The notes: a model not told the origin generated them from the letters alone. 64,000 nt of DNA from a virus (IMGVR_UViG_3300027906_000002:1-64000), one strand, 5' to 3'. Positions 2 through 3,649 are shown, counted from the stretch's first letter. Numbers and translations are program-made.

Positions 2-1087
2 TTAAAGGAGAGAGCAGAGACAGGTCGTATATACTTGATGAACATTGACCATTGTAATAGTCACAGTTCATTTAAAGATAAGGTTAGCATGAGTAACCTT
101 TGTCAGGAGATTACTCTACCTACAGATCCGATTCAACATATTGATGGGTCTGGTGAGATTGCATTGTGTATACTATCTGCTATTAACATAGGTAAGATTA
201 ATAAGATTGAAGAGTTGGATGAGTTGTGTGAGTTAGCAGTAAGAGGATTGGATGCACTGATAGATTATCAGCAGTATCCTGTAAAGGCAGCAGAACAATC
301 TACAAAGAACCGTAGGTCACTTGGGGTAGGTTATATTGGTTTGGCACACTTCTTAGCTAAGAATGGTGTCAAGTATGACTCACAAGAGGCATGGGATTTA
401 GTTCATTCAATGACAGAGAGATTCCAGTATGCTCTATTGACTGCATCTAATAGGTTATCAATGGAGAAAGGACCATGCGGTTACTTTGGTAAGACAAAGT
501 ATGCTGATGGAATTCTACCCATCGATACATACAAGAAGGACGTAGATGAGATTGTACCGAATGATCTATCATGTGACTGGGAGTTTCTTAGGGGGCGCAT
601 ATCCGAGTATGGGTTACGGAACAGCACACTGTCCGCACAGATGCCTTCGGAGAGCAGCTCCGTTGTGTCAAACGCAACCAATGGAATCGAGCCACCTAGA
701 GACTACTTGTCCATTAAAAAATCAAAGAAGGGGCCTCTTAAGCAGGTTGTACCATCATATACTACACTAAAGAATAACTACACATTGTTATGGGACATGC
801 CAAACAATGATGGATACATTAAAGTAGCTGCAGTGATGCAGAAGTTCTTTGATCAAGCCATTAGTGGTAACTGGTCTTATAACCCAGAGAATTATCCAGA
901 CAATGAAGTACCTGTGTCAGTGATGGCAAAGGACTTACTAACAACCTACAAGTATGGTTGGAAGACATCTTATTACCAGAATACATATGATGCTAAGAAG
1001 GATGTTGATGAAGAAGTTGATGTTGATAAACTTATCAATGAAATCTTAACTACTGAGGAGGAGGTCTGTGACAGCTGTGCAGTCTAA
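2..1087 (+). CDS. nrdA: Ribonucleotide reductase class Ia alpha subunit, 5'-truncated by the window edge
   Basis: Frame open from base 2; NLCQEI, SAQMPSESSS..SNATNGIEP and WKTSYY motifs; C-terminal CDSC. Confidence 0.97.
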   Translation, partial: LKERAETGRIYLMNIDHCNSHSSFKDKVSMSNLCQEITLPTDPIQHIDGSGEIALCILSAINIGKINKIEELDELCELAVRGLDALIDYQQYPVKAAEQSTKNRRSLGVGYIGLAHFLAKNGVKYDSQEAWDLVHSMTERFQYALLTASNRLSMEKGPCGYFGKTKYADGILPIDTYKKDVDEIVPNDLSCDWEFLRGRISEYGLRNSTLSAQMPSESSSVVSNATNGIEPPRDYLSIKKSKKGPLKQVVPSYTTLKNNYTLLWDMPNNDGYIKVAAVMQKFFDQAISGNWSYNPENYPDNEVPVSVMAKDLLTTYKYGWKTSYYQNTYDAKKDVDEEVDVDKLINEILTTEEEVCDSCAV

Positions 1088-2234
1088 AGAAATAAGTGGT
1101 ATGACAGTTTTCAATAAGAAGGCTGTTGATACTACAAAACAATACATGTTTTTCGGAGCACCCCTGAGTGTTCAACGTTATGATCAATACAGATTCCCAA
1201 CCTTTGATCGGTTAACTCAACAACAGTTAGGGTATTTCTGGAGACCTGAAGAGGTATCACTTCAGAAAGATAGAGCAGACTATGCACAGCTTAATGAAAC
1301 ACAACGACATATATTTACCAGCAACCTTAAGTATCAGATCATGCTGGACTCCGTACAAGGTCGTGCTCCTGGTATGGCTTTCACTCCTTACTGTTCTCTA
1401 CCTGAGTTAGAAGCATGTATGCAAGTGTGGCAGTTTATGGAGATGATCCATAGTAGATCATACACATACATCATTAAGAATGTATACTCAAATCCTTCAG
1501 AATTATTTGATACCATTTTAACTGATGATAATATACTATCAAGAGCAGAGTCTGTTACCAAATCATATGATGAGTTTATAAATTATGCACAGGATTATGG
1601 TCAGAGTAATGCTTGGAAAGATGATATGAGGACTCATATTAATTCAGAATGGACAAGAAAAGATTTAAAAAGATATCTTTATAAAGCAGTTGCTAACGTT
1701 AATATACTAGAGGGTATTAGATTCTATGTGAGTTTTGCTTGCTCCTTTGCATTTGGTGAGAACAAACTCATGGAAGGATCAGCAAAGATCTTATCACTCA
1801 TTGCGAGAGATGAATCACAACACCTAGTATTAACACAACAGATATTAAAGAACTGGTCTGAAGGTAAAGATGATCCAGACATGCAAGAGATAGCAGAGGA
1901 AGAGAAGGAAACCGTAACAGAAATGTTTAGAGCTACTGTTAATGAAGAGAAGGCATGGGCAGATTATCTTTTCAAAGATGGTTCTATGATAGGATTGAAT
2001 GAAAGATTATTACATAATTATGTTGAGTGGATTGCTAACAGGAGGATGAAGGCAATAGGTTTACAACCTATATACGATCAACCCCTTAGAAATAATCCAC
2101 TACCTTGGACTGAGCACTGGCTTAACTCTAAGGGTCAGCAAAATGCACCACAAGAAACGGAGATTGAAAGTTATGTCGTTGGAGGAATCAAACAAGATGT
2201 CAAAGGAGACTCCTTCGCAGGATTCTCCCTCTGA
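1068..2234 (+). CDS. nrdB: Ribonucleotide reductase class Ia beta subunit
   Basis: FWRPEEVSL, EMIHSRSY, LEGIRFY and RDESQH di-iron motifs; follows nrdA. Confidence 0.97.
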   Translation: MTAVQSKEISGMTVFNKKAVDTTKQYMFFGAPLSVQRYDQYRFPTFDRLTQQQLGYFWRPEEVSLQKDRADYAQLNETQRHIFTSNLKYQIMLDSVQGRAPGMAFTPYCSLPELEACMQVWQFMEMIHSRSYTYIIKNVYSNPSELFDTILTDDNILSRAESVTKSYDEFINYAQDYGQSNAWKDDMRTHINSEWTRKDLKRYLYKAVANVNILEGIRFYVSFACSFAFGENKLMEGSAKILSLIARDESQHLVLTQQILKNWSEGKDDPDMQEIAEEEKETVTEMFRATVNEEKAWADYLFKDGSMIGLNERLLHNYVEWIANRRMKAIGLQPIYDQPLRNNPLPWTEHWLNSKGQQNAPQETEIESYVVGGIKQDVKGDSFAGFSL

Positions 2235-2421
2235 TCCAGAGTGGAAGTTAGAAGATTTACAGAAGGCAATCATTGATAGTGCTGAGATGTATGATGAACT
2301 GTTAGATAAGGCAGGTCAGCATGAGTTACCACCAAACACAGCAGAAGCAATGTGGGAGATGGAACGCAACCTATGGTCACAAAGACAGAATCGGGATGAG
2401 GTTGACGAATCATCCTATTGA
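2197..2421 (+). CDS. Hypothetical protein
   Basis: ATG 2197 with GGAGGA at 2181; overlaps the nrdB 3' end. Confidence 0.6.
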   Translation: MSKETPSQDSPSDPEWKLEDLQKAIIDSAEMYDELLDKAGQHELPPNTAEAMWEMERNLWSQRQNRDEVDESSY

Positions 2422-2463
2422 TGCTATTGTATCAATACGAACCAGTTTGTAATGGTTCTCTGA

Positions 2464-2481: not shown

Positions 2482-2495
2482 GTATCAACAGATAC
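2482..2495. promoter_or_regulatory. NtcA-like box GTA-N8-TAC
   Basis: GTAtcaacagaTAC inside the palindrome AAGGTATC-aaca-GATACCTT. Confidence 0.5.
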
Positions 2496-2500
2496 CTTTT

Positions 2501-2541
2501 CGTTCATCCCAGAAGGGACGCAAGTAAGCCGACTCGGAACG
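2501..2541 (+). ncRNA. Glutamine-riboswitch-like aptamer 1 (glnA-motif-like)
   Basis: P1 CGTTC/GAACG, P2 TCCC-agaa-GGGA, core GCAAGTAAG resembling the glnA GGAAGUAAG junction. Confidence 0.65.
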
Positions 2542-2547
2542 GATCAT

Positions 2548-2724
2548 CGTTCATCCTCATGGAATTCATTCTCATTACTCTCTTCACATGTTCAGATGCT
2601 ACGGACTTGATATCCAAAGTAACTGATCGCAGTGCAGGTGAGTTCAAGTCCGAAATCATTCAAACGATTAAGGACAGTACTGAGAAAGGATGTTTTGAGG
2701 ACGCAAAAGCCGACTGAAGGAACG
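2548..2724 (+). ncRNA. Glutamine-riboswitch-like aptamer 2 with a very long P2 loop
   Basis: P1 CGTTC 2548/GAACG 2720, P2 TCCTCA/TGAGGA, 3' core CGCAAAAGCCGACTGAAGGAACG. Confidence 0.55.
2559..2717 (+). CDS. 52-aa small protein nested in aptamer 2 (MEFILITLFTCSDA...CFEDAKAD)
   Basis: Manual translation; hydrophobic N-terminus, two Cys; below the ORF-track cutoff. Confidence 0.55.
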   Translation: MEFILITLFTCSDATDLISKVTDRSAGEFKSEIIQTIKDSTEKGCFEDAKAD

Positions 2725-2757
2725 GTCTAATCAACCTAATCCTACAGGAGAAAACAC

Positions 2758-2901
2758 ATGGCAAAAGTCACTTACCGAGGGGTCGAGTACGACCCTGCAG
2801 AGTACAATAAGAAGGTACTCTACGAGGCAAGTCAGCATCGCAATCACGAACTAATGTATCGTGGTATTAAAGTTCAACGCAAGTTCGCAACTCAGAGCTG
2901 A
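2758..2901 (+). CDS. DUF4278-like 47-aa peptide
   Basis: MAKVTYRGVEY...LMYRGIKV with two YRG motifs; SD AGGAG at 2746. Confidence 0.75.
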   Translation: MAKVTYRGVEYDPAEYNKKVLYEASQHRNHELMYRGIKVQRKFATQS

Positions 2902-2922: not shown

Positions 2923-2953
2923 AAAGACACCTTATTGACAGGTGTCTTTTTTT
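2923..2953 (+). terminator. Intrinsic terminator
   Basis: AAAGACACC-N9-GGTGTCTTT followed by a T run. Confidence 0.8.
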
Positions 2954-2989
2954 GTGTAATAATAAATACTGGAAATTGTAACGAGAGTC

Positions 2990-3649
2990 ATGAAGATTTT
3001 TCTGGACTGCTCTGATGTTGACCTAATAAAACAGTCGTATGCGAGTGGGTTAATCGATGGAGTAACAACTAACCCCAGTCTTATGTTGAAGAATGGTCAA
3101 GATCCATTGAAGGTTCTTAAGGAGATAACTTCTATCTTCCCTTGGGATGCTTCGATATCAGCAGAGGTAGTCGGGGATACAGTGGAGGACATGCTAGCCA
3201 TGGCTGATACTTACTTGGAGATAGCACCCAACATTACTATTAAAGTACCTTGCACACGCACAGGTCTTAGGGCATGTAAAGATCTATCAGAGGATGAGGT
3301 GGCAGTTAACGTAACACTTATATTCTCTGCTGCTCAAGCAATACTTGCTGCTAAAGCAGGTGCAACATACGTTTCACCATTCATAGGTCGTTTGAACGAT
3401 CAATATTGGGATGGTATATCATTAGTCGAGGAAATTTCAGATGTATTCACAACGCATGGTTCTAAAACTCAAGTACTCGCTGCTTCAATTAGAGAACCAA
3501 TTCAAGTCGCAAAGTGTTTTCGAGTGGGGGCTGATATCTGTACTCTGCCTTGGGATATATTTAATAAAATGTATGACCACTGCTTAACTGATGCAGGTAT
3601 GCAGAAGTTTGATTCAGATTGGATCCAACTACAGGATAAACTGAAGTGA
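2990..3649 (+). CDS. talC: Transaldolase (TalC/Fsa type)
   Basis: IDGVTTNPSL, IKVP, VNVTLIFS, YVSPFIGRL, AASIR motifs. Confidence 0.96.
   Translation: MKIFLDCSDVDLIKQSYASGLIDGVTTNPSLMLKNGQDPLKVLKEITSIFPWDASISAEVVGDTVEDMLAMADTYLEIAPNITIKVPCTRTGLRACKDLSEDEVAVNVTLIFSAAQAILAAKAGATYVSPFIGRLNDQYWDGISLVEEISDVFTTHGSKTQVLAASIREPIQVAKCFRVGADICTLPWDIFNKMYDHCLTDAGMQKFDSDWIQLQDKLK

Follow-up and report, generated by a model that had tools for sequence, protein, structure and literature searches.

A small protein gene of the family phrog_504 appears to fill the apical P2 loop of a riboswitch aptamer (aptamer 2) in a T4-like cyanomyovirus, where this aptamer follows another (aptamer 1) in tandem before an IF17-like gene. 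The reading preferred here, with a probability of about 0.6, is that aptamer 2 is under selection and that the arrangement as a whole is a device with two outputs. Taken by itself, the claim that the gene and the aptamer are both real and both selected is highly probable: there is purifying selection on the protein, and the aptamer displays covariation, invariant non-coding bases and frozen synonymous sites. A preliminary description of this DNA had offered, as one of two possibilities, a gene in a riboswitch loop with both retained, and these observations uphold it.

Organisation of the locus

The window, i.e. the whole stretch of 64,000 nucleotides that was analysed, is part of a complete 179-kb virus record with the gene order of T4-like cyanomyoviruses. 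Between nrdB and a transaldolase gene there is a short unit running from a weak promoter-like match, through aptamer 1 and then aptamer 2 with its nested open reading frame (ORF), to the DUF4278/IF17-like gene and a terminator-like hairpin (Table 1).

Table 1. Features of the short unit and of the genes on either side, numbered from the first nucleotide of the window
Feature	Position	Strand	Details
nrdB	1068-2234		
Sigma-70-like promoter match, weak, possible start of the unit	2402-2430	+	TTGACG-17-TATTGT; 9/12 positions; consensus scan alone, no evidence of function
NtcA-box-like palindrome GTATCAACAGATAC	2482-2495	+	GTA-N8-TAC; read from the sequence; 5 nt 5' of aptamer 1
Aptamer 1, compact glutamine-I (glnA), putative	2499-2545	+	P1 2501-2505/2537-2541; P2 2507-2510/2515-2518
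Aptamer 2, 5' half	2548-2559	+	P1 strand CGUUC 2548-2552; A2553; P2 strand UCCUCA 2554-2559
Nested gene, 52 codons + TGA	2559-2717	+	phrog_504 family; from the ORF list; stop TGA 2715-2717
Aptamer 2, 3' half	2696-2724	+	P2 strand UGAGGA 2696-2701; core CGCAAAAGCCGACUGAAG 2702-2719; P1 strand GAACG 2720-2724
Shine-Dalgarno sequence AGGAG of the DUF4278/IF17-like gene	2746-2750	+	read from the sequence; GGAG conserved across aligned leaders
DUF4278/IF17-like gene, 47 aa, two YRG motifs	2758-2901	+	expected riboswitch target; PF14105, phrog_5049
Intrinsic-terminator-like hairpin and T run, closing the unit	2923-2957	+	hairpin 2923-2949; 10-bp stem
Transaldolase gene	2990-3649		

Aptamer 1, which had previously been placed just upstream of the nested start, was indeed located there, scoring 33 bits against RF01739 (gathering score 35; E 2.5e-5) and 36.8 bits against our own covariance model R1. 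The DUF4278-like gene scored 24.5 bits against PF14105 (cut-off 25.3; E 3.6e-5) and matched phrog_5049 with E 6.6e-22, and both YRG motifs of its product are invariant in 49 relatives. It starts 34 nt past P1 of aptamer 2, and nearly all related loci are alike in this respect. At the position of the NtcA-box-like palindrome related phages have a different one, TGTGTTA-N5-TAACACA; the NtcA site of the MED4 IF17-like gene overlaps the transcription start (Klähn et al., PMC6212724). Upstream of the unit, a 92-aa ORF at 2143-2421 shares 92 nt with the end of nrdB, in a different frame, and is a conserved overlapping gene, matching phrog_1336 (E 4e-11) and corresponding to 'T4-like GC 659' in S-SSM5 and P-RSM4.

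In aptamer 2 the CGUUC strand pairs with GAACG to form P1 and UCCUCA with UGAGGA to form P2, the loop of which measures 136 nt instead of approximately 4. The A of the ATG (2559-2561) is the final base of the 5' P2 strand. At the other end the final six codons and the stop (E-D-A-K-A-D-stop) constitute the 3' P2 strand and the core of the aptamer, so placed that the TGA falls within the conserved core (GACUGAAGGAACG), in its P1-proximal part and 41 nt before the DUF4278 start codon. The preliminary description had set the ATG at the top of the 5' P2 strand (TCCTCA) and had equated the last codons with the 3' P2 strand and conserved core, and the coordinates of both were confirmed from the sequence.

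Occurrence among cyanophages

Judged by sequence, the layout is family-wide and common to hundreds of related phages. It is present in P-SSM2, S-SSM7, P-HM2, S-SSM5, S-CAM22, S-RIM2, S-H38, P-RSM4 and ACG-2014b, which represent nine genera, and a protein-based search of IMG/VR yielded 127 confirmed loci. Two samples were analysed, namely a protein-found set of 87 loci, 68 of them unique, from at least nine cyanomyovirus genera, and an RNA-selected set in which loci were picked solely by the RNA halves and their spacing in a pattern scan of IMG/VR, independently of the protein (115 unique among the matches listed). According to the RNA-pattern scans of IMG/VR the nested form occurs in at least 120 viral contigs and the compact form also in at least 120. 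In P-TIM68 the tandem is likewise present but lacks an ORF altogether, and aptamer 2, here compact, scores 35.4 bits on RF01739 (gathering score 35). The same core subtypes are common to compact and nested aptamers, which is compatible both with insertion of the gene and with its loss in the compact forms. No relative of the nested protein was encountered when one genome per prokaryote species was scanned with the single pattern CF[EK]DA[KN][AV]D.

Most records of named phages annotate the nested ORF simply as a hypothetical protein, and that of P-SSM2 (AY939844.2) has no CDS at its position. Sullivan-type records give it the label 'T4-like GC 430', with syntenic genes in S-SSM7, S-SSM5 and P-RSM4.

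The nested open reading frame

On comparative grounds ORF 2559-2717 is a genuine protein-coding gene of the cyanomyovirus-wide family phrog_504, to which residues 2-50 of its product align (E 1.2e-6; profile positions 3-52 of 53). All 68 unique loci (87/87 in total) have this frame open, and each of the other five frames is open in 0-6 of the 68. Throughout the 87 loci the ATG stands 10-11 nt past the C of CGUUCA and the stop, which may be UGA or UAA, occupies the identical position in the core. The encoded proteins are 49-58 aa long and all indels are multiples of three, variability is highest at the third codon position (entropy 1.04, 0.64 and 1.27 for positions one to three), and the median pairwise dN/dS of the unique loci is 0.37, with values below 1 in 98.8% of pairs. 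Homologues conserve the nesting with coding-type substitution, a check that the preliminary description had suggested. Amongst the loci chosen by their RNA, 113 of the 115 unique listed frames are intact compared to 20/575 (3.5%) of shuffled interiors. With all 87 protein-found frames intact as well, the nesting is not a matter of chance.

The two exceptions among the 115 listed sequences are L255, where a stop occurs four codons early, right before the DAND tail, and L246, where the ATG is out of frame; these may be decaying copies or sequencing errors. Three other loci (L016, L017 and L018) have an in-frame ATG 61 nt upstream, giving a nested ORF of 74 aa that runs through aptamer 1. This extension is probably an accident of frame and means that at these loci aptamer 1 has no stop in the frame concerned.

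The protein has a hydrophobic N-terminus and two invariant cysteines (C11 and C45), and the AlphaFold2 model is a two-helix hairpin (pLDDT 73). A search of Pfam produced no family match, Foldseek returned nothing from the PDB and solely the protein's own cyanophage family from BFVD, and the ESM Atlas gave unnamed clusters with no named family among them. A search for homologues from the single sequence, using a word index of limited reach, produced one match. Prediction of a complex between the nested protein and the DUF4278 protein gave a score of 0.00, which speaks neither for nor against binding.

Aptamer 2 as an RNA

By its P1, its P2, its core and its position in the leader of a DUF4278 gene, aptamer 2 is a putative glutamine-I riboswitch. 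Glutamine binding by the phage aptamers is assumed, because P3 is very small or missing: it is a mini-stem of 2-3 bp (AG-CCGA-CU), and there is none in the ...GCAAACGACU... subtype. The stretch 2701-2719 aligns letter for letter, with no mismatch, to a model built from 70 compact aptamers, and CCUGAAG also occurs in the crystallised glutamine-I RNA (PMC5393176). In the crystallised constructs the P3 helix moves upon glutamine binding and the P2 hairpin ends in a GAAA loop (PMC5393176). If that GAAA loop is read as engineered, the apical loop of P2 would by analogy be a tolerant site.

The P1 strands CGUUC and GAACG are invariant in 68/68 unique loci and P1 is thus without covariation evidence either way. 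CGUUCAU is non-coding yet invariant in the same 68 loci, as are GGACGCA and GGAACGG of the 3' half. It is P2 that varies. Its pairs 1-3 are U-A, C-G and C-G with some U-G, pair 4 is U-A in 56 of the 68 unique loci, C-G in 8 and U-G in 3, pair 5 is C-G in 30, U-G in 23, A-U in 10 and U-A in 2, and pair 6 is A-U in 58 and U-A in 6. Over pairs 4-6, 196/204 cells are paired; shuffling of partners gives 161 on average (sd 4.5) and did not arrive at 196 once in 2000 trials. Since the 3' P2 strand is made up of codons 46-47, residue 47 of the protein (E, K or W) covaries with untranslated bases 5' of the ATG. In the overlap with the aptamer Asp is GAC in 68/68 loci and Ala is GCA in 68/68, whereas within the ORF interior these codons account for 33% and 35%.

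RNAalifold, applied to a codon-aware alignment, predicts that P1 and P2 close around the ORF with almost no conserved pairs inside it, and P2 is closed in 61/68 single-sequence minimum free energy (MFE) folds. The predicted closure of P2 in the window is 0.96 with the native interior. Dinucleotide shuffling of the interior lowers it to 0.15 and synonymous recoding to 0.24, and none of the 40 controls of either kind reaches the native value. The bias is in the same direction in all 15 lineages tested; in L077, L087 and L090 at least a quarter of the controls reach the native value. As native interiors favour closure over shuffled and recoded ones, codon choice within the nested gene seems, in these folding models, to be tuned so that the distant strands of P2 meet.

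Detection by covariance models

A search of the whole window with Rfam at the gathering threshold gave no match, and at E <= 10 on 2380-2960 aptamer 1 was found and aptamer 2 was not. The models miss aptamer 2 because they cannot bridge a P2 loop of 136 nt. Our own model, from 70 compact aptamers, found the 3' half of aptamer 2 but took as its 5' partner a decoy strand, AUCAUUCA, 39 nt away, with a non-canonical pair and a score of 33.2 bits, so that there is no formal score for the split aptamer. The decoy lies within the ORF at 2655-2662 (codons E-I-I-Q) and mimics the 5' P1 strand; many relatives encode a conserved ELVQ motif by ...CUUGUUCAG, and GUUCA is part of that sequence. Such a P1-like strand inside the ORF could be a coincidence of coding or a competing strand.

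Aptamer 1 and the P1 strands

Aptamer 1 is compact in the window, but in other phages it encloses a nested gene of its own, phrog_6471 ('GC 429'), which encodes 61-75 aa with two invariant cysteines. Examples are P-HM2 (L003:195-425), P-RSM4 (L089:99-326) and 53 IMG/VR loci. Lengths of aptamer 1 are bimodal, 112 unique sequences falling at 30-79 nt and 53 at 210-269 nt with none between, and the phrog_6471 frame is intact in all 53 unique long forms. The ATG of phrog_6471 is close to where the P2 loop begins on its 5' side (6-8 nt past CGUUCA in 52/53). For the stop there are two locations, one being the UAA within the core GCAAGUAAG (GCAAG-UAA-G) and the other the 3' P2 strand or the bases immediately preceding it. 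Compact and nested versions of aptamers 1 and 2 occur in all four combinations. Over the two gene families more than 230 unique loci have an ATG that adjoins or overlaps the 5' P2 strand, i.e. the spacer between helix and ATG is zero.

The proteins of phrog_504 and phrog_6471 look alike, each with a hydrophobic start followed by Cys ... Cys. Paralogy was considered, but profile-profile comparison gave a probability of 15% (E 0.0017) and aligned the families from Cys to Cys alone, so that homology is not established.

The P1 strands of aptamer 1 match those of aptamer 2 exactly, and 6 nt of linker separate one aptamer from the other. Consequently the 3' strand of aptamer 1 can pair with the 5' strand of aptamer 2, and the outer strands with each other. 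This crosswise fold (2537-2552 with 2501-2505 and 2720-2724) and the tandem fold come out equal in predicted energy, at -67.8 and -66.9 kcal/mol respectively, and the inner hairpin GAACG-GAUCAU-CGUUC is present in the unconstrained MFE structure. Covariation cannot choose between the two folds because P1 never varies. Crosswise pairing, as modelled, would change which strands compete with the ribosome, and identical P1 strands might let the aptamers swap partners to give a cooperative, domain-swapped double sensor.

Regulatory coupling and alternative explanations

An important consideration is what the overlap would mean for translation. The nested start has no apparent Shine-Dalgarno (SD) sequence and its initiation region would coincide with the 5' half of aptamer 2, whilst the stop and the footprint of a terminating ribosome would cover the core and the 3' P1 strand. 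Because the start is the last base of the 5' P2 strand, without an SD, and the stop is in the core next to the 3' P1 strand, a 30S subunit or ribosome and the folded aptamer 2 should exclude each other, and we infer that translation of the nested gene and folding of aptamer 2 are mutually exclusive on one RNA molecule. On nascent or glutamine-free RNA the nested gene would be translatable and its translation would keep aptamer 2 open. Glutamine would stabilise the fold, burying the nested initiation region, and the downstream IF17-like gene would be on. In reporters glutamine switches on the leaders of Synechocystis gifB and of a Prochlorococcus DUF4278 gene (PMC6212724, PMC6698751).

By analogy with those leaders, coupling in this direction, in which glutamine masks the nested gene and turns the IF17-like gene on, is put at somewhat short of an even chance. 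The rating reflects the lack of a consistent SD switch, a nested AUG that is mostly paired in all states and the lack of a conserved expression-platform helix. Thermodynamic modelling of the accessibility of the DUF4278 SD under four constraint states gave no consistent switch, with medians of 0.55 with P1 formed, 0.56 with P1 blocked and 0.51 with a ribosome on the stop, and accessibility was greater with P1 formed than with P1 blocked in 41/64 loci. The models leave the nested AUG mostly paired whatever the state (about 0.3 unpaired), so glutamine may add little to a start site that is already closed. From aptamer 2 to the DUF4278 start RNAalifold gave no conserved expression-platform helix.

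It was also observed that the stop variant correlates with the bases past P1, UGA going mostly with GGAACGGGG and UAA mostly with GGAACGGAU or GGAACGGAG (window 2715-2727; leader-alignment columns 209-221), which may reflect lineage or an unrecognised pairing. Where GGGG follows P1, a small hairpin to a downstream CCCU is possible.

The most specific form of the proposal is a glutamine-controlled toggle with opposite outputs, the nested gene being expressed only from the unfolded sensor, and the folded, glutamine-bound sensor silencing it and turning on the IF17-like inhibitor of the host's glutamine synthetase. This version is rather doubtful. If it were true, the nested Cys-Cys proteins (phrog_504 in aptamer 2 and phrog_6471 in aptamer 1) would be low-nitrogen effectors of cyanophage infection.

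Of the other explanations the one that survives best is that gene and aptamer are both functional with no cross-regulation, their packing being a matter of phage genome economy. The ORF would then be translated mainly co-transcriptionally or at a constant low level, and any ribosome-free aptamer 2 would act as a compact aptamer does. Compact and nested forms do occur side by side and do not differ in core subtypes or in the gene that follows, as if the riboswitch worked with or without the ORF, the SD modelling contains no ORF-dependent switch, and the apical P2 loop varies in length among compact aptamers and was capped with GAAA in the crystallised constructs (PMC5393176). However, such an arrangement should have spacers between helix and ORF, yet none separates the ATG from the 5' P2 strand in the more than 230 unique loci of the two families, and the nested ORF always runs into the 3' strand or the core. 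Moreover, with a start inside a helix and no SD, translation cannot be indifferent to folding, and the explanation is regarded as unlikely.

The second possibility raised in the preliminary description was that the DUF4278 gene is subject to translation-coupled gating. Physically this is plausible, given that the stop is in the P1-proximal core, 41 nt before the next start. The ORF would then be mainly cis-regulatory, with terminating ribosomes holding open the 3' P1 strand and adjacent bases or re-initiating 41 nt downstream, and both glutamine and translation of the nested ORF would determine the DUF4278 output. The fixed place of the stop in the core (U[G/A]A of GACU[G/A]AAGGAACG, 87/87 loci) accords with this. 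So does the ability of the stop-containing CUGAAGGA to pair in the window with UCCUACAG, a stretch overlapping the SD. Other lineages allow CU[G/A]AAG to pair with CUUUGG, but pairings before the SD differ by lineage and are anecdotal. On the other hand a pure leader peptide would not be expected to show purifying selection, two invariant cysteines and a predicted fold, the predicted SD accessibility did not rise consistently when the ribosome footprint was forced open (40/64 loci; medians 0.51 vs 0.56), and the ORFs nested in aptamer 1 end far from the DUF4278 start codon. Gating as the main role of the ORF is therefore considered improbable.

Two further explanations are strongly disfavoured. 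Aptamer 2 might be a relic that neither folds nor binds glutamine, its halves kept as a 5' leader and C-terminal codons, and the failure of Rfam to match it and its minimal P3 would agree with that; this is very improbable given the compensatory changes linking the untranslated strand to codons 46-47, the frozen synonymous sites of the overlap, the preference of native interiors over synonymous recodings for P2 closure and a core identical to that of compact aptamers. That the 136 nt are a structured extension of P2, open by accident, can be practically dismissed, for although a long imperfect rod is the predicted fold of the interior (MFE z-score -2.76), 181/183 unique sequences (115 of them among the matches listed) have an open frame against 3.5% of shuffles, with the dN/dS, indel and third-position pattern of a coding sequence and, in RNAalifold, almost no conserved pairs inside it. 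The preferred reading remains a phrog_504 gene within a selected aptamer, for which a device with two outputs is the most likely model.

Comparison with known systems

To our knowledge riboswitch aptamers are usually treated as non-coding. A gene inside a glutamine aptamer was not found described in the literature searched, although a remark in Ames & Breaker 2011 or Ren et al. 2015 is possible. The present locus appears to be a protein gene that is topologically inside an aptamer, shares bases with its predicted ligand-binding core and persists in many genera of the most abundant cyanophages of the ocean. As a natural system it would force RNA sensing and translation into competition for the same nucleotides, with clean dual selection, coding and structural, that is measurable at single sites. 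As standard covariance-model scans miss split aptamers, tandem glutamine riboswitches are probably under-counted in phages. Two 'hypothetical' cyanophage families would gain a context, that of nitrogen sensing and an IF17-like glutamine synthetase regulator, and the reading and rewiring of host nitrogen status by phages becomes directly testable.

Several elements of the layout have precedents. Tandem glnA RNAs were noted in 2010 (PMC2864571), the link between glutamine riboswitches and DUF4278 is already known (PMC2864571, PMC6212724), and phage glutamine riboswitches are known as Rfam hits (PMC9964418, PMC9004378). The nearest relative is glutamine-I itself (RF01739; the Synechocystis gifB/IF17 leader, PMC6212724; constructs, PMC5393176), with which the phage aptamer 2 has in common a CGUUC/GAACG P1, a P2 directly past CGUUCA-U, a core of the form ACGCA...CUGAAG and a position in the leader of a DUF4278/IF17-like gene. 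It differs in that the P2 loop of 136 nt is a whole conserved gene, the last six codons and stop of which are the 3' P2 strand and core, in its tiny P3 and in being invisible to Rfam.

Glutamine-II (the Downstream-peptide motif, RF01704) is the type used by marine Synechococcus and Prochlorococcus, the hosts of these phages (PMC6212724, PMC6698751). Its ligand-pocket sequence elements and the kind of gene downstream of it are those of the phage element too, and RF01704 gives sub-threshold matches of 20.7-28.8 bits over aptamer 1. Glutamine-II is, however, a pseudoknot with no nested ORF described, and the phage elements follow the three-way-junction order of type I.

Short ORFs within metabolite-sensing leaders offer a different parallel, one being mgtL, the leader ORF in the Mg2+ leader of Salmonella mgtA. 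An M. tuberculosis uORF is reported to interact with B12 riboswitches (PMC11260477). In such leaders translation and folding compete as they would in the phage leader, but mgtL and the M. tuberculosis uORF reportedly act via being translated, with the uORF in the expression platform, whereas the phage ORF is inside the aptamer and its protein is conserved (dN/dS 0.37). Membership of the class of leader-peptide or uORF attenuators, where the peptide sequence is largely free, was rejected in view of the purifying selection, the two invariant cysteines and the predicted two-helix fold.

Homing-endonuclease ORFs occupy peripheral loops of group I introns, for example in phage T4. There too a gene is found in the loop of a structured RNA, a helix closes around it and forms with and without the gene are present among relatives. 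The phage ORF, in contrast, has no spacer and overlaps conserved core bases, and its host RNA would be a riboswitch rather than a ribozyme. A mobile ORF of the intron type was rejected in that no endonuclease domain was found (no Pfam family, only its own family with Foldseek and no named family in the ESM Atlas).

Finally, SgrS/SgrT and RNAIII/hld are dual-function RNAs in which the two functions occupy largely separate segments. Like them, the phage leader would combine in one transcript a structured regulatory RNA and the coding of a small protein, but here the coding region is topologically inside the putative sensor and shares bases with it.
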